Source: Elsinoe ampelina | Taxonomy: Eukaryota | NCBI GenBank assembly: GCA_010093995.1 | Contig: ML992502.1 | Location: 177,042-197,041 of the forward strand | Direction of reading: 5' to 3' | Length of the DNA stretch: 20,000 nt | Shown: positions 1 through 15,247 of the stretch, in pieces | Layout of the letters: each line of letters starts with the position of its first letter | How positions within the stretch are numbered: position 1 is the stretch's first letter | Program-made: the position numbers and the translations under genes | Notes under the pieces: generated by a model | Told to the model about the DNA's origin: nothing | What the model saw: only the letters and a program-made list of their open reading frames with translations | Database searches by the model: none

Positions 1-184
1 CAAATGCAGGGATGCTTGCCAGAATGCTTCGAGCAGAGCAAAAGATGGCTGGCACCTGGTCATCAACCGGCGCCCTCGGTCAACCTCGGCTTCTCGTGAT
101 GCTTGGCATTGCGGAGGACCTGCTTCGTAGCTTAGGATAACGTGCACCGTACGTCGAAGCTCGGGCCCTGACAACCGTTTATCC

Positions 185-194
185 GTTTGTTTAC
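185..194 (-). promoter_or_regulatory. Possible forkhead-type site (GTAAACAAAC) upstream of NDC80
   Basis: GTTTGTTTAC on the + strand ~140 bp before the ATG matches the RTAAACA forkhead consensus. The motif is short and could be chance. Confidence 0.3.
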
Positions 195-331
195 TCGAGG
201 TTTGGCGCGCATACCGACTTTCATAAATCTTGAATAGTACAACTCGTCGGCGCATTCGACATTCGGCGTCGCATCATCGATATCGCACTTGAGCAAGGAT
301 AATCCGAGATAGCTTACCGTTCCTACTCATC

Positions 332-2647
332 ATGGCGCAAGACGCGCATCTCTTCTCGGTGCGTCGCCCGCGCGAGACACTCGGATCCATCAGCAACAAT
401 GTCTCCGCTATACCTATGCCACCCTCTGCCATGAAGCGCTCGAACTCGATAGGCCATATTCAGCAAGTGCCAGGAACAGCGCAACACAAGCGGTCAACAT
501 CAGGATCTAGAATGTCCCTTGCGCCAGGTCGACCAAACCAGCCAGTCTTTGGAAGGTCTTCATCGGGAAACAATCTGGCAGACTTTGGTCTTTCGACTGT
601 GCAGCGAGCGTCCTCTCAAAATTTGCTCGCAAGTACCGGTCGAAAGAGTCTGATGCCGGGAAGCTTCTCACTTGCGACGTCTACACCAGGACCATCACAG
701 CAGTCGTCACAAGACACGCAGCGGAGATCGTCAGTGTACAATTCGCGTCCTTCGGTCGGTCATGGCCCGACAGCACATCAGTCGTTCTTTGCGACTGCAC
801 CACCTCAGACTGGTATGCCCGTTGATCCGCGACGACTCAAGGACCCATCAACGCGCGCTCAAATGGGCCAGGAGATCATGGAGTTCCTCACACAGCGCAA
901 TTTTGAGTTGGATATGAAGCATACCCTCACGCACAAGACAATGACATCTCCAACACAGAAGGACTTCAACCTTGTCTTTCAGTTTCTTTACCATTGTATC
1001 GATCCAGCCTACCGGTTTCAGAAAAACATTGATGCTGAAGTCCCTCCACTACTCAAGCAAATGCGCTATCCGTTTGAAAAGAACATCTCAAAGTCGCAGC
1101 TTGCTGCTGTGGGTGGGAACAATTGGTCGACGTTTCTGGGACTGCTGCACTGGATGATGCAACTTGCAAAGATGATGGAGGCATACGCGGTTGGACAATT
1201 CGACGACGCTTGCGCAGAAGCAGGATTCGATGTTGCGGCAGATCGAATCACGTTCCAGTTCCTCAGCGATGCATATCGGACGTGGCTTTCCGTGGAGGAC
1301 GACGAAGAGGATGAGGAGGAAGCGCAGAAGCTCATACAGCCCCATGTCGAAGCCATGGCCGCAGCTTTCGAGGCCGCCAATAGTGCCAATCTGGAACAGC
1401 TCAAGCTACTGGAAGAGGAGGGACGAGAGCTACAGAAGCAGATCGATGATCTGGGCAAAAGTGCGCCACGATTAGCGAAGCTTGACGAGCAGATCAAAGT
1501 GTTGGAGGAAGATCGTGGCAAGTTTGAGAACTACAATATGAGCATGGAAGGAAAGGTGGAGAAGTATGAGCATCGTGCGAAGGTGCTGGACGAGGAAATT
1601 GCGAAGATCGAAGCAGAGCTCCAAGAAGCAGACGAGGAGCGAAGAGCACTCCAGGATGCTGTGGACAGGCAAGGGCTCTCTGTACAGGACATTGACCGCA
1701 TGAACACCGAAAGGAAGAGGCTACAGACGGGCGTCGAGACTGCTGCAGCCAGATTGGACGAGTGTAGGGAAGCTGTCGGGCAGCGAGAAGCAGAGACTGG
1801 CCAGAAGCTGGAAGAGCTCGAAGACGCCGTGTCAAAGTACAACTCACTGGGCTACCAGATCGGTATCATCCCGTCAGACGCGCCCAACGCAAAGGGCAAC
1901 CAATACGAGCTTCTTCTGACAGTAAACCGCGGGCCAGAGTTCGGTAGCTCTCAGATGGGCGGATCGCAGAGTCAAGAATCCGACAGACTGCTTGCTGATG
2001 CTGGCAACGGATACCAACCACATCACCTCCTGAACCTCGACCTCCGAGGATCTGTTAAGAGCAACATCCTCTCTCTTCGCAAGGAGGTCAGTGAGCGACG
2101 AACCAACGCTTTCGAGCAAGACATGAACAACCACGAGCTACTCGACAAGATCAAAGAAGCCATCGACGACAAGCAGGCTGAAGTCGAGACACTCGGTCAC
2201 CGCGTCCGCGCAGCCGAGCAAGAGTTCGAAAGCACCAAGGAGACCACAAATGCGCAAAAGATGAAGTCTGATGCTCAAATCGAGAAGATGGAGAAGGAGC
2301 TGCAACGCATGCGATCCGGTCTCACGGAAAGTGTCCAGCTCATGGAACAGCGCGAGATGAATACCAACCTCGAGTAAGCCCTCCCCTTCTCCCTCTGCCT
2401 CCTCCCAGCATCCTCCTAACAACCTCACAGATACGAACAACTCACGCTCAAATCCGCCACCCTGCGAGAAGAACTCCACACCGAGCTCGAGAAGATGCTC
2501 AACGACATTATCAAGTTCAAAGTCCACGTGCAGACTAGTCTCGAGGGCTACGAGGAATTTGTCGCGCAGGAGGTGGAGGCTGAGTGCGAGGAGCAAGAAG
2601 CTGCTGAGGCTGCCGAGATGGCAGGGGAAGAAGGGGGGGAGGCGTGA
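332..2647 (+). CDS. NDC80: Kinetochore protein Ndc80/Hec1; join(332..2373,2431..2647), ~752 aa
   Basis: S/R-rich N-terminal tail, then a CH-domain region ([65 protein letters not shown]), then a long coiled coil. Splicing continues the frame into [38 protein letters not shown] and ends at TGA 2645-2647. Confidence 0.95.
2374..2430 (+). other. 57-bp spliceosomal intron of NDC80
   Basis: GTAAGC donor at 2374, pyrimidine-rich body, CTAAC branch site at 2416-2420, CAG acceptor at 2428-2430. Removal bypasses the TAA at 2375 and restores the frame. Confidence 0.92.
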
Positions 2648-3432
2648 GGTGGTTCGTGGAGATGGATATGATTGATGATGAGCGATGGAATTTTTGTGAT
2701 TGGATCAAGGAGGAGCGATGATACCACTATCTTTTTTGTGTAATGACATATTGCTTGAGATGCATGTGGTGTTTTGGATCTACTGCTAGTGCACGGTGAT
2801 GGATAAGCAGTGTTGCGTGTGACCTCTTGTGCGTACATGTACGAAGATGCCATCCTGAGAGTAGCTGTGTGCTACATGCTAGCGAGCAAAGGCTTCCAAT
2901 CCGTCACTGGCTTCTCTTTGCGAGAGTCCGACGAACACAGGAGCGACTGCTTTGAAAGCATTGCTGAAGCGCTGCTTGTCCAGCCCTGGCTGAACCACGA
3001 TGGAGATGCGCTGGAGCCGCCGGGTGTGAGGTCGACTGTGATCATCTGGAGTGAAGAGGGGTTGTGGGGGTATAAAAGTGTGGCTGGATTTGGGCGTGTT
3101 CGTGGGAAGGGTTTGGTGTGTACAATACATACACAGGACACTGCAATGCTATGAGGGCATATTTCGCTAAGCCAATGCTTGGAAAAGTCCCAATCGCCCG
3201 ATCTATGCCTCAGGCAGTGGGGTGATATGCATGTATTGCAGACTTCACCTGCGCGACGACAGAGGGGTCCCGTCCAGCGATGCTGATGGAAGATGCACAG
3301 GACGGCAAAGGACGAAGTTGAGTTACTACCACATGCACTGCACGCTGGCACCCTACACATCCACCGACTCCAATCTCGAACGCACGCGGCGATCAACCAC
3401 TCAAGTCTGTATGGAAAACGCTCCACCACCCA

Positions 3433-5121
3433 TCACACCTTCCCCCCCTGCCTCTGACTCAACGGCCCCTGCGGAAAATCCAACACATCCGGCACCTCGA
3501 CCCTCCCCCCCTTCGCCTCCCTCATGGCCCTCACCTTCTCCCTCGGGGTAAACACCAAATCACACCTATCATGCCTAGAGCGATACCCATTCGCCTCAAA
3601 CGGAGCCATCTTGTCCGGCGTCGTCTCCGGCGCCAACGTGATGCGGAACTGCCTGAACGTCGCCACGAGAATCAACCGCATCTGGTACGTCGCCATGTTG
3701 CCCCCCGGACACCTGCGCGCGCCCACCCCGAACGGCACCAGCAGGCGTCGTTTCTCGGCCACGTTTTCGTCGTCCAGCCAGCGGCGTGGGTTGTAGCTGT
3801 CGAAATCCGGGAAGAGGTCCGGGCGCTGGCGGCTCATGGAGAGGGATTGGGTCGTGACGACGGTGCCGGCGGGGAGGTAGTGGCCTAGGATCTCGAGGCC
3901 GCCGGCGGGGACGAGGCGGCTGCCGGTGAGGGCGACGGGGGGCCGGAAGCGGAGGCCTTCTTTGATGCAGGCGTCGAGGAACTTGAGGGAGTCGAGGTCG
4001 GTGTAGCCGTCGTGGGAGGAGATTTCGTCGTAGAGGTCTTGTTGGAGGGATTGGTTCTTGGCGAGCTCGTAGTAGATGAAGGCGAGGGCCGAGGAGGTGG
4101 TTTCGGTGGCCGCGAGAACTGGATGTAAGGGTCAGTAAGATTATCTTCGTGATACCGCCGACGTGAACATACCCTGGCCGGCCATCTCGGCGCCAATCTC
4201 CGAGTCGGACCACTCCTGCGTGGGATATTTGGCATCGGTATCGGTGAAGAGCTTGTAAATGCTTGGATCTTCTTCAAAGGTGGAATTCCCTTGAGCCTTT
4301 GCCGCTTGTTTGCACAGATCATCGCCCAGTTGGAATAATTTGTCGCTAGAACGCACGCGGAAGCTAGCGTGGGAGAACGGACTCCATTGGAGCCAGGTGA
4401 AGAGCCATTCTGGCAGGCAAAGCCGCCAAACTACCAGAAAGTTGTATTCGCCAACGACGTGCGGGAACGTGGTGGCGTCCAGGTCGACTACTGAACCTCC
4501 CATGATGACTTGTGAGTTCTTCAGAGTACAGATACGAAGGTGCCAGACGATATCCTCGGACTTTTCTCCTTCGGATCGGCCGAGGTTGTGGACCATCTCC
4601 TCGATGTGCTTGACAAAGACGTCGTGTCGGAGCTTGAGATTCTTGGTGGTAGTGGCGATCATGACTGGATGGCGGCGTTGTCGGGCGATTGGGTGCTGTG
4701 GGTACGTCACTGTCCAGTCGTGGCCACCAACGCGGAGAGCGCGAATGGACGTTGGGGACGTATCAAGATCCTTCCTGATGAAGACCTTTTCTACAGCCTC
4801 TGGATCGTTGAGGATGACGAGGTTGGGAGCGATCCTGACGATTGGCCCGTATTTTGCCATGAGGGCATCTGCCTCGAAGGACAGTCTCCCGTGCCATCTC
4901 TGCCATCTGATCCAGAGGGAGGTCGCCGAGCTATGCCAGGGGCCAGGAATGGATCGAAGAGGGCCGAGATTGGCACGATAGATCATAGTACCAGCTCGGA
5001 ATAGTACCGAGGAGGCCAGGACAGCCCAAAGCAGTTCCCAGCGGAAGCCATCTCGGACATCGAGTTGTGTCTGCGGCGAGGGAACGCCGAAGAGGATCGA
5101 GCTTGAGTTGTCAAAATTCAT
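3433..5121 (-). CDS. Cytochrome P450 monooxygenase; complement(join(3433..4118,4173..5121)), ~544 aa
   Basis: N-terminal TM anchor followed by GPLRSIPGP; KYGPIVRIAPN; I-helix VLAATETT (formed across the splice junction); K-helix EGLR; YNPRRW meander; heme motif PFGVGARRCPG. The start at ATG 5121 is inferred; an upstream in-frame start at 5187 is also possible. Confidence 0.93.
4119..4172 (-). other. 54-bp intron of the P450 gene
   Basis: On the minus strand: GTATGT donor at 4172, CTGAC branch site, CAG acceptor ending at 4119. Splicing joins AEMAGQ to VLAATETT in frame. Confidence 0.92.
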
Positions 5122-6309
5122 GGTCGAGCAATGTCTTCCAAACGTCAACAACGCAGTGCATGCACAAGTGACGGGACAGAACACCATTTATGTCTGACGA
5201 GGGAAATCATGTCGTCGGGATCTGCGGTATTCAACCATCGGCGGTGTTGTCTAGGGCTGCATATGCCATCGCCTCCGGTAGTAAGAAATGTATCTTCAGC
5301 ACGTATCCCTCGTCGTATGTCGATGAGGAACGCATCACACCTACCAGACATTTTGATACGACGCATCCATTGCCTTGATAGCGAGACAGTAGCGTCGCCG
5401 ACATGTGGTTGTATGCCAAAGAGTGACTCCTCGCATGCCATCAAAGTCTTCGTGGGTAGGTGGAATGGGGTGCTAGGTCAGATTTGTCGAATTGATTGCA
5501 CTGGATTGGACGAGCGTGAAGTGCCCTAAACGGGACTTTCCTCTCATCGAAGACAGAGTCATGCCAAGGTGCTTGAAGGGACATCCACGTTGCGTGTGGC
5601 GTATGTGGTAGGATCAGGGCGTTATGATTCGCTCGTCCAGTCCGCAAGGTTACCTCCGGCCTCCTGTTCCATTGCAACATTTACTCTTGGATGAAGGGTC
5701 GTAGATAGACTGCTGCAAAAGGGCTGATAGTGCGTGCACAATACACGCAGGAGGGAATAGTCTGAAGTGATCTGTGACACGGGCCTGCTACAGTACAAGC
5801 GCAGCATCGACTCACTATCGTGCCGATGTGGTGTCACGATCGCGACTCGTATGACTGACCGCCGGTTGTGCCGGTGAGTTCCACTCACTGATACGGAGGT
5901 GTGCGAGGTCGTTTCGGCGTCTTCCTGAGTTGGGTGGATGGGAAAAATTGCGCCAGGAATGGAAAGCCCCCGAACTTGACACGCGAATTGTCACTACGTA
6001 AGCAGATTGGACATTCCAATTGGTCAGACTGCGGCTCTCTCGACGACTGCCCGATCGAGCTAGCGGCGGTCAGGGCCGCACTTCGCCTCGCTCGGGCACA
6101 GCCATTCCCTTGATTGGTCAGAATTGCTCCAAAACTTGAAGTTGACAAGCTGTGACGTTGTTGAGCTCGGCAACGTCTTTTCGGCTTCAAGTTCCGTTTG
6201 GCGTGTGACAGACGTTTTGCATGTGACAGACGCGCTTGACAACAGGTCGCGTCTCCTATCCATCACCACACAATGTAGTTGATCCTTGTACATCTCTTCG
6301 CCAGTCACA

Positions 6310-7814
6310 ATGGCACGAAGAGACGCAGACCAAGACAATGCGCAGTCGCAGAGACCGCTTGTGCGACTCTACCACACCATACTGGCACGTAAATGCACTC
6401 AACACGCTCAAAGCATGGCTAATCGGTGATACAGGACAAGCTCCTTCTACCCGTCCGGCTTCTCACCTCCAAATTCGCTCTTCGCGCATACCTGACCTCG
6501 ATCCTCTTCTTCATCACAGGCCTGCTGCTCTTTGCTTTCGCGGTGATCGCGTACGTCCTATTCTACTGGTCGTACGTCCCACGCATCGGCTTCTCAAGAG
6601 ATGTTCACCTTCAATATGATCCAATGCCTGTCGAGTGCCGCGCATATCTGGGAAGCGCGAATCCTTACTCGACCCCGTATCTGCCGCCATTGACAGGCGC
6701 TACACCTCCGCCACAGAGAAAGAGCGAGCTCACGGCGTCATTATCTACAAGATGCGCCGGGACACCTTCACCCTGGGGAACAGCGCCGGTTTCTCCAGAA
6801 GTCATCTCTCAGCAAGCTTATGATGTTGTCGTCGAGCTCACCATGCCACTCACTCCGCTCAACACTGAGGCTGGCAACTTCATGATTGACGCCCGCTTCC
6901 TCTCATCCCCAGCGCCCACCGAGTCTCTGCCCAAATACATCAACGACTACGACCCATTCTCTCCTCCGCCATCCACAGCCACCGACCTGGACGTTGAGCG
7001 TCCACTTGCTCACGCTCGCCGACCTGCGCTCATCCCCTATCACCCGCCTCTCATCTCCCTCTTCTCTTCATTCACTGCACTTCCACGATACGTCCTCGGC
7101 CTGCCGACCTCAACAACCACCCTCCGCGTGCCACTATTCACCCAAGTCTCCTTCCCACGCGGCCGCCGCGCCGTCCCTTCTTCCATTCACATCCAACTCC
7201 AAAACCCTTCCGGCGTCCAGCTCCAGGTCTACACCCTAAAAGTACATTTCCGCGCCCGCTTCTCCGGCCTGCGGTACCTGATGTACAACTTCCGCACCGC
7301 CTCCGGAATAGCTTTCATATTGTCATTCTTCTTCATGGAAGTTGTGACAGCTCTCGGCATCTACGGATTCCTGTCATTCGTTGTCTTCGGAGGAGATCGC
7401 CCCGAAGGTCAGAAGACAATCAAGGATGACCCTTCAGCCGACGACAGCGAGACGGCCATCAAAGACGAAGAGACCGAAACTGAGGGGATGAGTACCACTG
7501 AGCGGACATTCCCCTCATATGGAGGCGGGATGGCAATGAGATACTCCCAGCCTGCCGTCAAGCGGGAAGGGGAAGCAAGCAAGTCGGCAGTGATCGAGGG
7601 GCTGGGCGGGCTGACCAACATGACGCCCGGTCCAGGTGGAGAGGCCGACGATGAAGACGATGAGGATGCGGATTTTGTACTGGATGATACGGAGAGGTGG
7701 AGGGACAGTGGGCTCGGGACGAGTATGGAGAGTGGGAGGGAGAGGACCGCAGGGGTCAGGAGGCGGAAGAGTGGTCCCGGGAGTAGACCTGGGAGTAGAG
7801 GTGGTGGAAGATGA
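6310..7814 (+). CDS. SEI1: Seipin (BSCL2/Fld1 family lipid-droplet biogenesis protein); join(6310..6384,6435..7814), ~484 aa
   Basis: Two TM helices flank a lumenal domain with VHLQY, QQAYDVVVELTMPLTPLNTEAGNFMI, LQVYTLKVHFRARFSGLRYLMYNFR, followed by an acidic disordered tail with DSGLGTSMES. The supplied ORF starts at a GTG; the nearest ATG (6310) joins in frame via a short intron. Confidence 0.88.
6385..6434 (+). other. Putative 50-bp GC-AG intron of seipin
   Basis: GCACGT donor, GCTAAT branch site, CAG acceptor at 6432-6434. This is the only nearby donor giving an in-frame join (YHTIL|DKLLLP). Confidence 0.65.
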
Positions 7815-8548
7815 GGACAAATGGTGTGGTGTTGAGATTATGACCTGCATGAGGAACGATTGCTACTTTGCTGCGTTGTTGGGGACGGGTCACCAAAGCT
7901 GCTTGATAGAGCGTTACTCTCAACACTGCTGTTTACGATGCTCCTCCCGGTTCCATTCATCTTCTCGACCACGATATTTCGTGGTGTCAGGACATGTCCT
8001 TGTTCAGCCCAACAGACTGAAAGCAAGTGTCGGGCTGTACACCTCGCTCTGCAAACCTCGCCATCAGCGATGATCAATGGCAATCGTACTGCTGTTATTT
8101 ACCTTGTATCAATGACAGCTCGTGGACCTGCACCGCCCTCACCCGCGGCCAGGATAGCACCAACGACCACGAGATCGCACGTAATCAACAGGAGCACCCT
8201 GGTGAGCCCGATGTCGTCAAGGACCAAGATCAGCGGCCCATCCTTGCTACTCCTCACGAGCGACGGCCTCTGGCGCAAATGTACAATTCAAGAAGCCGTG
8301 CATCTAGTTGCAGGACACCAAGCGTCGAGGTCGTCGACGAGACTGCATGTCGGCCACCATCCAGCCAGCACCCGGTCAGGTGGGTCGACTTGGAGGCTCT
8401 CAATCACATTCGATCATAGACACAGCGACAGCGACAGCGACGGCTAGAGCCCCACGCAATGCAATTCCCATGACGCGACATCACTCGCACTCTGCTGGCC
8501 CAGATTCGACGACACAGGCATTACGGTACTCCAACGCAACACCTAGCA

Positions 8549-10960
8549 CTAGGACCCTTCGAACCCACCGGCTTTTGGTTTCCATTGCCCTGCCACCTCG
8601 CCTTTCTCGACCGTGATGTACCCTCCCTCCCCCGCCTTGCCCCTCAGAACCATCCCGGCCGACGAACCAAACACGACCTTCCCGACCAACGACCCCTGCT
8701 TCTCCCCCTCGACCTGCCCCTTCCTCACTTTGGCATTCTTCAAGTATGGCTGCTCCGGCGTACGCACTGGCCTGCTCGCCCTCTCCGCCCCGACCGATTT
8801 CTCCTGCACGGCCGGCCCGGGGTCAGCAGTGATTGCCACTGAAGCTTCATGTGGGAGGTAGAACGACACCCTCTTGAACACGGGCGTGCCGTCTTCGCGT
8901 TCGAGCATGCGGTAGGTGAACTTTTGATCTGGTAGGTCGGGGGCGGAGGTACTACCAGATAGGGCGGCTTGCTGGGCTGGAGTGGTGGGGGAAGCCGAGA
9001 AGAGAGGAGAGGACCATTGCGGGGCGTGACGGCCGGAGGAGGTGCGTTTGAGGATTGGGCCCGAGAGGGTACGCTTGGTAGGGGGTGAGGCATCACTTGG
9101 GGTTGGAGAAGTGGAGGCGGTGGGGAGGGGATGATCCGGGATGGATGGAGCGTGTGTCAGGGGCACTTTCTTGAAGATGGATGTGCCGTCGGGGCGGTCG
9201 ACCAGGCGGTAGGTGAATTGCTCTGCGACTGGTTGTTCAGCTGTCGGGCTTCGGTTGAAGACCGGGCCACCCCATTGTGGTGCGTGCCTACCGGATGAGA
9301 CACGCTTTCTGTTCTTGGGCCTGGTAGGCGTCGCTTGGGGACTGTCTGCAGGAGTCGCAGTGTCAGATCCTCTGGGTTCGAGAGGCACCTTCCTGAACAC
9401 AGATGTCCCGTCTGCACGATCGACAAGACGATAGGTGAATTTATGCTCTACTGGTTGCTCGGCTGCTTTTGTCTGAGCAAAGGCTGGAGTGCTCCACTGC
9501 GGTGCGTGCCTACCAGAAGACACTCGCTTAAAGACAGGCGTGCCGTCTGCTCGTTCGACCAGTCGATAGGTAGATGTCTCGTTCTCTGGGCTGACAACTT
9601 CGGTGCCAGAAGCTTCGTTGCTTGCAGCCGGTTTAGTCTTCTCCTCGGGCACTTTCTTGAAGAACGACGTCCCATCAGGCCGCTCCACGAGCCTGTATGT
9701 GAACTGCTGTTCTTCCGCGGCAGGCTCTGGAGCAGGCATCACCGGTTTCGTCTCCTGCACCGGCACCTTCTTGAACACAAACGTACCATCCTCCCGTTCA
9801 ACAAGTCGATACGTGAATTGCTCTTCCTCCTCTGCTTTCCCCGCTCTCGACTCCGCTTGCGCAAAGGCGGGAAAACTCCATTGCGGCACTGCCCTCCCAG
9901 ACGATACCCGCTTGAACACCGGCGATCCATTCCGTTGTACCAGCTTGTACGCTCCATCGTCGTCTGAAGCCTTCCGCTTAAGGACCGTGATCGGTGCGTT
10001 ATTATTGACAAGTGATGTTGGTGTCGGTGTCGGGCTCAACATTGGCTTGGCGAAATCGGGACTGCCCCATTGAGGCGCATGCCTCCCAGAGGACACGCGC
10101 TTGATACTACCAGGTCGTCCACGAGGAGTCAGATTGAATGAGGTGTCGGGTACGTCGATGCTCTCCTCTTCAGGAACAGAGGCCCCGACCACAGCTGGCG
10201 AAGTCACGCTCCTCGTAGCAAACACTGGGGCATTCCATTGTGGTGCATGCCGACCACTCGAGACCCGCTTCATGATCGACGGACGAGTGCGTCGTACAAG
10301 AACATCCTCCTGGCTTGCTTCGTCGCCATTTACGCTCCCAGACCCGTTCAGTCTTGCTATGCTCTCATCGAATTTGTTCCCGGTCGGCCACGTTGGTGTC
10401 CCCCAGTTCGGAGCATGTCTCCCGCTTGCTGTCCTTCTGAAGACGGGAGCTCCGTTGCGCTCGACAAGTGCACATGTAGAGTTGCCATTGTCTAGGGATC
10501 GTTCTTCGGGTACCTCACCTATGATGACCGAGCCGGCGTCCTCCTCTTTCGGCTGCCCGTACAGTGACTGTGTCCAGGTAGGCGTGCCCCAATTTGGCGC
10601 ATACCTCCCACAGCTTGTCCTCTTGAGGATTGGTACCCGTTCTCTGCTCACCAGTGTGTATGAGGCGCTCCTCGATCCCGAGACCGACTCTTGCTCCGTA
10701 GTGCCATTGGTATCGCGAGCAAGGTCCTGGTTGGATATTCCGTGTCTAGCTGGGAGAGGACCTTCTGCTACAACTGTGCCGATAAAGTCCCTGATGTTGG
10801 GGGTCGATTGGTCACCAGCTTCGCTCCCAATGGCGATGAGCTTGACCAGGAGTTCTCCAGGTTTCAATTGAGTCCCAAGAGGTAGCTGCGGAACATTCGC
10901 ATCCAGAGAAGTACCACCATCTCCGCGACGACCAATGGCCTCGGTCGTCAGGAATGGCAT
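8549..10960 (-). CDS. Uncharacterised 803-aa protein with interleaved KRxSSGRHAPQW and YRLVERxDGTxxFK repeats; termini resemble a split GroES-like (ADH_N) domain
   Basis: 2.4-kb uninterrupted ORF from an ATG. The repeats are conserved as amino acids while codons vary between copies, which indicates real coding constraint. Confidence 0.85.
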   Translation of the reverse strand: MPFLTTEAIGRRGDGGTSLDANVPQLPLGTQLKPGELLVKLIAIGSEAGDQSTPNIRDFIGTVVAEGPLPARHGISNQDLARDTNGTTEQESVSGSRSASYTLVSRERVPILKRTSCGRYAPNWGTPTWTQSLYGQPKEEDAGSVIIGEVPEERSLDNGNSTCALVERNGAPVFRRTASGRHAPNWGTPTWPTGNKFDESIARLNGSGSVNGDEASQEDVLVRRTRPSIMKRVSSGRHAPQWNAPVFATRSVTSPAVVGASVPEEESIDVPDTSFNLTPRGRPGSIKRVSSGRHAPQWGSPDFAKPMLSPTPTPTSLVNNNAPITVLKRKASDDDGAYKLVQRNGSPVFKRVSSGRAVPQWSFPAFAQAESRAGKAEEEEQFTYRLVEREDGTFVFKKVPVQETKPVMPAPEPAAEEQQFTYRLVERPDGTSFFKKVPEEKTKPAASNEASGTEVVSPENETSTYRLVERADGTPVFKRVSSGRHAPQWSTPAFAQTKAAEQPVEHKFTYRLVDRADGTSVFRKVPLEPRGSDTATPADSPQATPTRPKNRKRVSSGRHAPQWGGPVFNRSPTAEQPVAEQFTYRLVDRPDGTSIFKKVPLTHAPSIPDHPLPTASTSPTPSDASPPTKRTLSGPILKRTSSGRHAPQWSSPLFSASPTTPAQQAALSGSTSAPDLPDQKFTYRMLEREDGTPVFKRVSFYLPHEASVAITADPGPAVQEKSVGAERASRPVRTPEQPYLKNAKVRKGQVEGEKQGSLVGKVVFGSSAGMVLRGKAGEGGYITVEKGEVAGQWKPKAGGFEGS

Positions 10961-11386
10961 AGCCAGCGATGAGTGAGAGCAATAGCTTCCAGGACTTCAA
11001 AACGCGTACTGCGACAACATGCGACCCCGATCGCGTTCCCAGCAATCGCTAACGCAAGAATGGTGGAAGAAAAGACGAAAGGAAAACGGACAGAAGGGAC
11101 AGAAAATGCGACAGCCACCAGCGACGCCGGGTCTAAAAAGCTTGTGTCTCACCTATCTCTGTCATGAGGCGCCTGAAGGGTCAGCATGGTGGGCGGAGGT
11201 CTCTGTTCATGAGGCTGGTCTGGTAGGTGACTGTCGAATTGAATGAGGCCTGACTGCTCCATTGCTATCGTCAGACAGCCCAAGCATACTCTGGAATGTC
11301 CACGACCCTCGGACTTTTTTGTCTGGCACGAAACGGTGCGTGGCGCGGTTGGCGTTGAAAGAGCGATGGCGTGATTTGACGATTTG

Positions 11387-11528
11387 TGTTGTAATGGAAG
11401 GCTGGTACAGCTTCTCTGGTACTGAAGAACTGGCACTGATGAGTCAGCGCACGCACAGTAGATAAATTGGTTATTGTAACTCTCTAAATGAAACACACGT
11501 CTCTCGATCCGATTTGCCAGTTATAACA
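11387..11528 (+). repeat. Putative 142-bp 5' LTR of the Copia element
   Basis: Starts TGTTGTAA and ends TTATAACA (an 8-bp inverted repeat with one RIP-type mismatch), immediately followed by the PBS. The partner LTR lies outside the window, so the left edge is inferred. Confidence 0.65.
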
Positions 11529-11540
11529 GGTTATAAGCCC
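11529..11540 (+). promoter_or_regulatory. Copia primer-binding site (internal tRNA-iMet fragment type)
   Basis: GGTTATAAGCCC is GGTTATGAGCCC with one TG->TA change, the PBS type of copia/Ty5-like elements, and sits directly after the LTR-terminal CA. Confidence 0.8.
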
Positions 11541-11785
11541 GGCGCTTCTCTAAAAGCACTTAAAGCTATAGCAAATTAAGCGTGTCATTATTAAAAGGAT
11601 TACTAAGCCGCCTACACTAAATTCTGAACTAGCTACATTAAGATAAACACCTATAGTAGCCCGTATTAACCCTTTAATTAAACAGCTTAAACGGCTTAAA
11701 TAAGCTAATTACATTAATTAAATTAATAGGCCTTTAGCTAATTACTATTATTATATCTAGATTAGTAAAAATACTTAAGACTTAG

Positions 11786-12682
11786 ATTCTTAAGAGAGAA
11801 AGCAACTACAATACTTAGAGATTAACCCTTAAGGTAGCCCTCCTTAAAAAGGATATACTTAGATATACAATTTATAACATTAACTAGATACTAGTAGTTA
11901 TAAAGCCTAAAGAACTAGCCCTAGATACTAGTAAAGGCACTAAGGTAATCTATAAGGTTAGAAATAAGACCTAGTATAAGAATAATAGAATTACTTATAG
12001 TATTATTATAATAAGAATTTATAAATCTATTAGACCTTACTATAGTATAACTTAGAAGACTTTAAAGAAACTTCTAGATACTATTAAATCTATATTTAAA
12101 TCTATTATTTTATATAAGCTATATATAGCTATCTATAACCTTAATAAGGTAATTATAACAAGTTATAATACCTAAAAGTACTATAAAGATTTTATAAAGT
12201 ACTATTATTAATACACTATTACTATAGAGCAAAGAGTAAGCACTATTAGTACTAAACTAAATAAGTTTAGGCTCCCTCTATACTATATTAAAACTATATT
12301 TATTATAGGAATAGAGACTACTAAATAGTTAAGGAGCTAGAGATCTAGCCTTAACTATAAGAAGAGTCTTAAAGAGATAATAGACTCTCTTAGAATATAG
12401 AAGCTCCTATATAATAAAAGAACTAATCTAAACTCTATTTATAGAGTAGCTAGTTATATTAAGGATTAATACACTTAGTATACTTATTATATCTACTCTA
12501 ATATAGATTACTTTAAGTAGTACTCTAAGAAAGTACTAAAGAGTTAAAGTAAAAGAAATAATAAAGACAGGTTAAATAATAAAGATATAAAGGCTAAAGG
12601 TAAAAGTAATAAGTTAAAGACTAAGAAAGTTAGAGGTTAAGTAGCTATTAAAGAATCTAGAGAACCTACTAAGGTAGATAAA
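11786..12682 (+). pseudogene. Copia gag remnant (RIP-degraded; true start further upstream, not resolved)
   Basis: ILKRESNYNT*RLTLKVALLKKDILRY reverts to ILEGESNYNTWRSTLEAALLEKDMLGY. 12470-12511 (tac act tag tat act tat tat atc tac tct aat ata gat tac) reverts to C-x2-C-x4-H-x4-C in the same frame. Confidence 0.72.
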
Positions 12683-13145
12683 TGTTATAAACTAGTAGAA
12701 CAGCTAGAACATAGAGATGTTAGGACTAATTAAGCTACTAAGATTATTACGTAACCTAGCTCGACGTTTACTTAGTTCTCTATCTTCTCTAGTAGCTCTA
12801 CCTCTAAAACTATAGAGCGCGTAGGTTACTAGTAGACGTGTACTCTATATTACCTCTAACTCTCGCTACGAAGTATATAGAGTATATAAAGAATATAATA
12901 GAGAACATATATATATAGGAATAGTCCTTACCTTATATAAGTACTATAGTTAACCTTATCTAGATAGCGAACACTAGTATTGCTAAGGCTAGCCTTTATA
13001 ATACTATCTAATTGTACTTTATTATCTATAGGATATACTTTCTCTAACTCTTACCTTAGTGCTATACTACTATAGAAGTAGAACTCTCTTGTTCTTAGCT
13101 TAGCTTAGACTACTAGCGTAGACTATATTTAAACGGTTCGTGACA
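12683..13145 (+). repeat. Gypsy 5' LTR (463 bp)
   Basis: TGTTATAAAC...GTTCGTGACA. Aligns without gaps to 19238-19700. Confidence 0.96.
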
Positions 13146-13261
13146 TTTTAACTACTCTTACTATAGTATAGCACGCTACGAGGTTAATAAGTAACTCTTA
13201 CTCTAAGTTACTATTAGTATCTTCGATTACTAGTAAGCTAGAAAAGCTTACTATTAACGAC

Positions 13262-15247
13262 ATATCTACTACTAGTTTAACCTCGGGCGAATATAGAAGG
13301 TCTCTTAGTATAGAGGAAAAATAGAGTAAGCCTAAGTTAGAGGTAGAACTCTTCTATAGAGACTATGCTTACTTAAGGCGCTTCCTTGTTTAACTTAAAG
13401 CCTTCTTTACTCTAGAGAGAGATAAGTACGCTAATAACATAGTAAAGGTCCTCTATGCCGGGATACACCTTAAAGGCGCTATCTTTAGGTAGTTCGAGCC
13501 TTATATAAGTAGCTACCTAGATAGATAACTAGGCCTAGATATAAAGGCTATCTTTAAGAGCTTTAGTATCTTCTAGGCAAAGATTAAGTAAGTCTTTAAT
13601 GTATCTAATAAGGAATACGTCGCTACGACAAAGATTTAACAACTATAATAACGTAGGTCTATAGCCTAGTACTATTCCTAGTTCTAATAACTCGTAATAT
13701 ACCTAGACTAGAATAATAGTACTAAACATTTAGTATTCTACTAAGGACTAAGCGACTCGGTTAAAGACTAAATAATACCCGAGCCGCCTAATAGCCTCTA
13801 AGAACTAGTAGATACTACAATTACTATTAATAACTAACTTTACGAACGACATATAGAACATTATAGAGGATATAAAGTAAACACTAGATATACGCGTTCC
13901 TCTCGAAACTATAGAGACTCTATAGAACTTAACGCTATATATAAAGGTTGCCCCTTATAGGTATAAGGCTAAAGTCGTAGAGGAAAGTTCCTTAGTAGAA
14001 AAGAGAGAGAGAAGTATAGATAAGACAATCTATGTTTTAAGTGTAAAAGACCTAGGCATTAGGCTAGGGACTACCGATAAGGGGCGCTAGCCGATAGATT
14101 ATATATAATAGTTACTAGGCTAGTAGAGAAAAAGGCTAACACTACTATAGAAGACTTAACGACCTTTAGCATAGGTAAGAAAATATAGAAGGAGTCTATA
14201 ACGACTTAAGAGGTAATAGAATTCTCTCCGGATATTACACTTAATATTTCTATAATTAATAGCGAATAACAAAGCTAATACGTAACGCTATTATAGATAG
14301 TATATTACGATAACTCTTATTACATTTACTTGTTAGATAAGTAAGGATCTAGTTAGTCCCTATATAAGCTATCTAAGCGTAGGCAACTAACGAAATAGCT
14401 AGACTAGGAACCTAACTTAGAAAGGCTCTCTATAATTAGTAGTAATAGTAACTAACCTTAGAAGGTAGTTAGCAACAATTACTAATATACGATTATCGAG
14501 ACGAAGTATTAGGACGTAAGTGCTATACGACAATATAGTAGTCTTACCTTTAGCTCTTATAGTAAACTACAAGGAAAGGCATATTATATATCGCTCTAGA
14601 AATACATAAATCTAGATTACAAATAGTACTATACTATTTACTTATACGATGTACTTAGAGAAGAGGCTATTAGTCTTAAATACACTATAGACTTCTTAGT
14701 AATCGAAATAGGTAGTACTATTCCCTATAGCTAAGTACGGAAATACACTTAGTGTAGCCTTACTAACTATAACTATACTAGAGACAGTAGCGACGAAGAG
14801 AAATATAACAAAGAATATACCGAACAACTATAATATAATAATATAAATAACAATTTATCTAACAACGACAACGACGTACTACTACTAGGCGGACGACTTA
14901 AAGTATACCTTATAGGGATATAGAGAAACTATATAATAATATATACCTATTACTAGAACAAAACACGACAAGATAAATCTACTTAACCTACTTTCGTCTT
15001 TAATACTAATACCTAGCTACACCTAGAGGGAATAGTTATACTAATATAAGTGTATAATACTACTTAGTGTAACTAATAGAGGATTATTAAACTTTATAGT
15101 TATTAAGGAACTTAAGCACTAGAAGTCTACCTCGCTATATTAAACAATAATAAGACACGACTAGCCTAATAGGTATAATATTAATAATAGATACGTACGG
15201 GAAGGGATTAACTACTTATCTAAGGCGCTATAATAATAAAAAACTAG
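13262..15247 (+). pseudogene. Gypsy gag (RIP-degraded, ~660 codons; start inferred from ATA<-ATG at 13262)
   Basis: KPKLEVELFYRDYAYLRRFLV*LKAFF...KVLYAGIHLKGAIFR*FEPY is capsid-like; SIELN reverts to PMELD near 13918; knuckle CFKCKRPRH*ARDY at 14033-14074. The same frame ends at AAA AAC TAG. Confidence 0.85.
15238..15247 (+). promoter_or_regulatory. -1 ribosomal frameshift slippery site A AAA AAC followed by the gag stop TAG
   Basis: X XXY YYZ heptamer in the gag frame. All downstream pol motifs lie in the -1 frame. Confidence 0.75.

Follow-up and report, generated by a model that had tools for sequence, protein, structure and literature searches.

The 803-residue protein and its repeats

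The stretch of DNA analysed here, the window, comprises 20,000 nucleotides of contig ML992502.1 of Elsinoe ampelina (assembly GCA_010093995.1, positions 177,042 to 197,041). Elsinoe is a genus of scab fungi. The window is fungal, with genes for Ndc80, a P450 and seipin, and on its minus strand an open reading frame (ORF) encoding 803 residues (10960..8549; protein P0001) runs without an internal stop. This ORF, present as a single copy in the genome, is the subject of our study: its product descends from an enzyme, but most of its length is a repeat region (Table 1).

This region holds eight A motifs (KRxSSGRHAPQWxxPxF) and B hairpins of the TYRLVERxDGTxxFK type, of which six are full and three degenerate. 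B often continues straight into A, and the complete B+A unit at residues 463-494 is likely to be the ancestral repeat unit. As modelled with AlphaFold2, the B elements are isolated hairpins, the best blocks reaching a predicted local distance difference test (pLDDT) score of 63-77, and 672 of the 803 residues score below 50.

Among 8000 scored candidates we found four relatives, from E. batatas (P0002, 674 aa), E. fawcettii (P0003, 1237 aa) and E. australis (P0005, 616 aa), together with a 643-aa protein close to that of E. australis (P0004/P0281). The E. australis records P0005 and P0004/P0281 are one A motif apart; the number of A motifs may vary within the species, or one of the gene models may be wrong. 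The A and B motifs were not found elsewhere in the genome, and among the proteins retrieved none outside Elsinoe carries them. A profile search of 1.84 billion representatives, dominated by columns of the monooxygenase SfnG leaking in from P0003, returned 260 matches; among the 150 listed, the repeats are present in P0002 and P0005 only. Neither the whole protein nor residues 378-570 had a usable match in the ESM Atlas, and Foldseek with the full-length model, itself of low confidence, gave 0 matches at E <= 0.001.

Compared with E. batatas, 110 of 119 residues are identical in the A motifs and 86 of 90 in B, against 273 of 396 (69%) in the linkers and 24 of 33 in the C-terminal half-domain described below. 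The same contrast holds for E. fawcettii (A motifs 68/85, linkers 75/199) and for E. australis. The N-terminal strands show 26/27, 19/27 and 12/25 identities to E. batatas, E. fawcettii and E. australis, respectively, compared with 69%, 38% and 31% in the linkers. Between copies within the gene, codon pairs for identical residues are synonymously different in 165 of 268 cases in A and in 109 of 187 in B. Conserved motifs at diverged synonymous sites show that protein-level selection, and not recent copying, holds the motifs. Selection thus keeps both the repeat motifs and the N-terminal strands.

Table 1. Features of the 803-residue gene, with positions in the window and residues of the protein
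Feature	Residues	Position	Strand	Remark
803-aa ORF (P0001)		8549..10960	-	Uninterrupted coding sequence; no signal-peptide- or membrane-like hydrophobic stretch
GroES-domain strands LLVKLIAIG and RDFIGTVVAEG of a LovC-like MDR	24-67	10760..10891	-	Supported by HHalign, shuffles and model
Repeat region	68-758 (691 aa)	8687..10759	-	Replaces 7-aa loop; P/S/T-rich linkers predicted disordered
A motif 1	113-129	10574..10624	-	Degenerate hairpin precedes
A motif 2	175-191	10388..10438	-	Hairpin 161-178 precedes
A motif 3	231-247	10220..10270	-	
A motif 4	287-303	10052..10102	-	
A motif 5	350-366	9863..9913	-	Hairpin 337-352 precedes
B hairpin 1	382-399	9764..9817	-	TYRLVERxDGTxxFK type
B hairpin 2	420-437	9650..9703	-	
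Complete B+A unit	463-494	9479..9574	-	Hairpin 3 into A motif 6
B hairpin 4	508-525	9386..9439	-	
A motif 7	552-568	9257..9307	-	
B hairpin 5	582-599	9164..9217	-	
A motif 8	638-654	8999..9049	-	
B hairpin 6	681-698	8861..8920	-	Ends in RVxF-type motif 696-700
Following GroES strands VGKVVFG, GYITV and EVAGQW.P	759-796	8573..8686	-	Match via relatives; protein ends a few residues on
54-nt GT..AG intron		8049..8102	-	Joint 8048-8103 (CT..AC) in one X1 contig; ~450 nt past stop

Descent from a fused reductase and loss of catalysis

An earlier reading made from the DNA letters alone (the sequence-only reading) had taken the two ends of the protein for consecutive parts of one GroES-like domain of the medium-chain dehydrogenase/reductase (MDR) type, with the whole array sitting in a short loop between them. 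Our data bear out this view. The motifs lie at the positions claimed: LKPGELLVKLIAIG at residues 31-44, DFIGTVVAEG at 58-67, LVGKVVFG at 758-765 and GYITV at 781-785. Residues 24-67, queried as an alignment of five orthologues, match a 20-member MDR family in HHalign with Prob 91.9 and E 6.8e-7, and the first-strand block of the family scores best at residue 34 of the protein, a value that none of 500 shuffles reaches. The C-half is undetectable when compared with the MDR family directly (466 of 500 shuffles equal it) and is recognized through relatives. For the corresponding strands of P0003 (0/1000 shuffles), P0005 (0/1000) and the intact MDR P0126 (14/1000), residues 759-789 give the best ungapped match anywhere in the protein, and the spacing from the VVxG to the GY/EY strand is 14 residues in P0001, P0003, P0005 and the MDR family alike. 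The strand labels follow what we take to be the MDR topology. Between the strand ends lie 691 residues, compared with 7 in the intact family members P0006 and P0126, and the insert length varies among the five Elsinoe proteins (691, 562, 507, 517 and 490 aa), as had been anticipated.

Two alternative placements were rejected. An alignment of GYITV to a Rossmann loop conflicts with the 14-residue spacing to the GroES strand that orthologues and family keep, and a second 'GD.V' strand copy after the N-half of the E. australis protein was not among the top three sites on scoring.

The domain assignment carries a caveat. PF08240 (ADH_N) matches neither the full protein nor either end at E values up to 10, and none of the 48 PF08240 matches in the genome falls on this locus. 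Searching PDB sequences with the first 70 residues returned nothing meaningful. Concatenating the ends, as had been proposed, brings no gain for P0001, for which the N-half alone scores 7.3 bits and the joined halves 6.3 bits, a score matched by 30 of 500 shuffled C-halves. It succeeds for E. fawcettii, with 18.0 bits joined versus 11.1 and 5.7 separately.

In the E. fawcettii protein P0003 the insert is followed first by a Rossmann domain (PF00107 at E 1.5e-6, which is below the cut-off) and then by an SfnG monooxygenase (TIGR04021, 559 bits versus a cut-off of 383). Its residues 533-811 are 33% identical to an intact Penicillium MDR (E 1e-31), and its N-half aligns separately. Intact MDR-SfnG fusions occur in Cryoendolithus, Rachicladosporium and Oleoguttula and in one further record (P0126 cluster, P0199). 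In a 19-row tree the MDR part of P0003 groups with these fusions (83/92) on a branch that is about ten times longer, and the intact MDR on contig C11 of the E. ampelina genome is a separate paralogue. The best solved match of the parent family is LovC (E 4.6e-21), on which a model of P0003 residues 1-837 superimposes with Z 20.9 and a root mean square deviation of 3.3 over 251 aligned residues. Because P0003 keeps both the Rossmann domain and SfnG, the ancestry is settled: the ancestor was a zinc-free, LovC-like MDR of a fungal subfamily, fused to an SfnG-type monooxygenase. The fungal fusions thus represent the likely ancestral gene type, with both enzymatic parts intact and no repeats. E. 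fawcettii retains the fusion and the linker end, whereas the E. ampelina genome is without an SfnG over the cut-off.

In E. ampelina, we found no Rossmann or SfnG remnant in the 3' untranslated region (UTR), the window or 30 kb of flanking DNA (50 kb in all) and no TIGR04021 match in P0001, and the best match in the genome scores 78.7 bits (cut-off 383). A 'VLVLG' in another frame past the stop was considered as a Rossmann relic and rejected, since 71, 107 and 219 of 300 shuffles equal it. The annotated E. batatas and E. australis proteins end at the same place as P0001. This picture has its weak points: the fusion clade is moderately supported and contains P0003 on a long branch, the absence of SfnG could stem from an incomplete assembly, and the truncation in E. 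batatas and E. australis is known from annotated proteins and not from DNA.

The catalytic residues have been lost as well. The NPxDWK loop, found in 110 of 115 family members, is missing in all four Elsinoe N-halves examined; in P0001 the segment between the strands of residues 24-67 is replaced and about 12 residues shorter. The lysine of this motif aligns with K54 of LovC (a position located by comparing the wild type and K54S chains), which the accessible part of PMC11943018 names among the activity residues. A second loop, WGASTTxG, occurs in 108 of 115 family members and is altered even in P0003. With the Rossmann domain, SfnG and the catalytic lysine lost, the 803-aa protein is a pseudoenzyme of the Elsinoe lineage, and the missing cofactor domain would in practice exclude any NAD(P)H-dependent reductase activity. 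The sequence-only reading of a non-catalytic fold without Rossmann domain is therefore right for E. ampelina, but the Rossmann domain existed in the ancestor and survives in degenerate form, with the fused SfnG, in E. fawcettii. With the LovC-like zinc-free enoyl/quinone reductases (PDB 3b70; PF08240 plus PF00107) the protein shares homologous GroES strands in the same order; unlike them, it has lost the K54 loop, carries a 691-residue array in a 7-residue loop and possesses neither a Rossmann domain nor the C-terminal part of the catalytic domain. It descends from these enzymes and is not a working member. A protein that is 'hypothetical' to every family scan can thus hide a traceable enzymatic ancestry.

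In the natural fusion of a LovC-like MDR and SfnG in several fungi, the reductase partner is of interest, since SfnG needs reduced flavin. Fungal FMNH2-dependent monooxygenases figure in the part of PMC5857272 available to us as uncharacterised candidates for sulfur assimilation. The intact paralogous MDR of E. ampelina (C11:1191135-1195700) and a different luciferase-like monooxygenase are arranged head to head, a transporter-like ORF follows downstream, and the locus looks like a small sulfur-scavenging cluster.

Origin and possible role of the repeats

Two accounts of the origin of the repeats have to be weighed. According to the first, the repeats are foreign or stem from an unrelated linker peptide, were inserted in a tolerant loop, and resemble NPxDWK by chance; we judge this as likely to be true as false. 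According to the second, to which we give just under an even chance, they derive from the enzyme itself, whose strand-plus-NPxDWK segment was amplified in tandem. The test for self-derivation was post hoc, prompted by a BLAST match of the last E. fawcettii repeat to the K..G.NP.DWK.P.F segment of the parent. In this test, a profile of 37 repeat copies was scored along 110 family members. In 102 of them the best site is the NPxDWK register, and the median family score is reached by 0.4% of 2300 shuffles; since the relatives are not independent, they amount to a single test. Of 46,940 windows drawn from own-genome loci, the highest-scoring one holds the same motif in another MDR, although these loci were preselected as MDR hits and other paralogues are not in the top 15. 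The last repeat Trp is 36 residues away from the C-half in E. australis and 34 in E. fawcettii, close to the family mode of 36 (57/108), and the repeat periods are often 55-63 residues. These observations argue against a foreign origin, as does the confinement of the motifs to Elsinoe among the proteins retrieved and to this gene within the genome.

Other observations count against self-amplification and in favour of foreign repeats. In E. ampelina and E. batatas (P0001, P0002) the Trp-to-C-half distance is 110-113 residues; HHalign yields only Prob 1.6 with P 0.032, and no match came from a local run. Moreover, in P0126, the closest intact relative, the NPxDWK register is not the best-scoring site, the stretch between the last repeat Trp and the strand that follows resembles the family no better than shuffles do (83, 97 and 143 of 300), and a score of 20.6, which exceeds the family median, was reached by one of 22,884 luciferase windows. 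An E. fawcettii model that puts the strand of the last repeat in the GroES domain was discounted, as it is forced by the input alignment. What the sequence-only reading called an insertion may thus have grown from within, by amplification of a segment that belongs to the domain.

Either origin can be set beside known systems. In the cases of domain atrophy and nested domains described in PMC4432964, as far as its accessible text goes, core elements are likewise lost in a domain that hosts a large insert; those are folded remnants or hosts of foreign domains, whereas here a disordered array outgrows its host and may derive from it. The repeat proteins of PMC5074805, in the portion consulted, likewise grew from an amplified fragment of a non-repetitive protein, but form an ancient folded solenoid and were tested by design, while the present case is of genus-level age, mostly disordered, and would have donor and repeats in the same gene. 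The origins of repeat proteins and of lineage-specific disordered proteins have mostly been argued from ancient cases; here, a genus-level series leads from an enzyme to a selected repeat protein. As one species keeps the lost domains and the candidate donor in the same gene, amplification of a host domain is directly testable in the Myriangiales. If self-amplification is true, living Elsinoe species would preserve its stages, from repeats with Rossmann domain and SfnG to repeats only. Literature searches, in which most subscription journals were not covered, found no description of the 803-aa protein.

As the best explanation we favour, by a modest preponderance of probability, that a LovC-like MDR-SfnG descendant turned pseudoenzyme and is now a selected multivalent repeat scaffold. 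A loop of its GroES domain has grown to 490-691 residues of repeats, the K54-equivalent loop is gone, and E. ampelina has also lost the Rossmann domain and SfnG through deletion. The protein is predicted to act in the cytosol as a multivalent scaffold, disordered over most of its length. In it, eight basic KRxS sites stand directly before the conserved GRHAPQWxxPxF, a putative docking element, so that phosphorylation would switch binding, and the B hairpins would bind partners through strand addition. KRxS, or more loosely [KR][KR]x[ST], is a PKA-type consensus; the latter occurs 9 times (shuffle mean 2.3), flanking the conserved aromatic element. The RVxF-type motif at residues 696-700 is also present in E. 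batatas and E. fawcettii and is a candidate docking site that may recruit protein phosphatase 1 (PP1/Glc7). RVxF is given as the consensus for PP1 docking in the accessible part of PMC6506691, and the PP1/Glc7 regulatory subunits treated there would have such a site in a disordered chain in common with our protein, where the candidate is found in three species; by comparison, the site here is a single short putative motif with a chance occurrence in about 5% of shuffles. Three points tell against this functional reading: the scaffold role is deduced from sequence anatomy; the high number of kinase sites follows from the repetition as such; and the strict RVxF motif, noticed post hoc, is matched by 54 of 1000 shuffles and absent from E. 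australis, in which a loose match occurs. A more specific version, that the catalytic-lysine segment was amplified up to eight times and reworked into phospho-switchable motifs and hairpins, with the remaining strands possibly closing the array, is tentative, and we hold it to be somewhat less likely than not.

For the retained ends, two fates appear possible though doubtful, and we consider them equally so. The first, compatible with the scaffold explanation, is that the five retained strands co-fold as a small barrel that closes the repeats into a giant loop. In agreement, all truncated forms retain the same five strands, all four truncated proteins end within about 10-20 residues of the last of these, the 14-residue spacing has been kept, the N-terminal strands are strongly conserved (26/27 identities to E. 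batatas), and the C-half has 13/31 identities to E. australis; strand retention and N-strand conservation argue for some structure. Yet in the comparison with E. batatas the C-half is conserved at linker level (24/33 versus 273/396) and has a 6-residue deletion in that species, the N-terminal segment of the E. fawcettii model is helical and outside the MDR match (biased by its alignment), and in LovC, whose cofactor domain the accessible part of PMC11943018 places at 135-282, residues that follow the Rossmann fold are also required for the catalytic domain; these are gone here. The full-length AlphaFold2 model from five sequences (mean pLDDT 37.7) shows the N-terminal strand pair 37-43 and 59-66 at about 55 and leaves the C-half unstructured at 25-31, weak evidence in view of the shallow alignment. 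The co-folding of the termini into a clamp around a disordered loop, as suggested in the sequence-only reading, is not seen in this model and is hypothetical. A complex prediction with residues 12-70 and 750-803 (score 0.02, mark 0.34), made without alignments or control folds, provides evidence in neither direction. The second fate is that both ends are unfolded vestiges and the repeats alone matter. Low pLDDT at both ends, linker-level conservation of the C-half and the absence of a Pfam match are consistent with this, whereas N-terminal strands conserved like the repeat motifs are hard to explain without a structural role.

A secreted adhesin or effector with repeats, as a lineage-specific repeat protein of a plant-pathogenic genus might suggest, is very improbable, given descent from a cytosolic enzyme, the lack of a hydrophobic stretch at either terminus (highest 19-residue hydropathy 1.01) and only 2 cysteines.

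Transcription and surroundings of the gene

Four sequencing runs were compared with positions 1-13500 of the window, their RNA nature being deduced from spliced joints. Run X1 contains four such joints, of which three fall within neighbouring genes or at their ends, and barely covers an AT-rich block past about 11.5 kb of the window that has dinucleotide indices of the repeat-induced point mutation (RIP) type; the joints and the near-zero coverage of this block identify X1 as RNA. Its record 3 covers 8103-11371 with zero gaps and zero letter differences from the genome. The stop codon of the 803-aa ORF is crossed unspliced by contigs of three of the four runs (X1, X2 record 8 and X7 record 23), which come from three studies. 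These contigs, which do not reveal transcript ends, strand or level, show that the gene is transcribed and confirm the gene model. An artefact or pseudogene, be it through an incorrect gene model, an overlooked Rossmann exon or decay of the ORF, is the least probable explanation and largely refuted already: the RIP-damaged block lies only about 430 bp away and the MDR part evolves very fast, but besides the unspliced stop, three other species have open frames with conserved motifs, no downstream coding relic exists and the ORF shows no RIP signature.

The intron downstream of the stop (Table 1) most likely belongs to the 3' UTR of the 803-aa gene, an assignment made by inference. Introns are unusual in a 3' UTR, and this one might have been left behind by the coding part that was lost; a coding remnant around it was looked for and not found. 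The seipin gene on the plus strand and the 803-aa gene are convergent (window 6287-8548), and as one RNA contig covers both, their 3' ends probably overlap.

On the upstream side, positions 11387-11540 belong to a high-copy, LTR-like (long terminal repeat) element that starts with TG and has its TTATAACA end near 11529; 40 matches were scored among 191 candidates, at 96-97% identity to other copies. About 430 bp separate it from the ATG, the RNA contig that covers the gene extends to 11371, and the element may affect transcription of the 803-aa gene. The RNA-covered leader (10961-11371, minus strand) contains six upstream ATGs, which would make translational control possible if they are part of the mRNA. 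Elsewhere in the window, an RNA-supported 57-nt intron at 2374-2430 takes out the stop of the 681-aa Ndc80 ORF, so that the true Ndc80 protein is longer than 681 residues.

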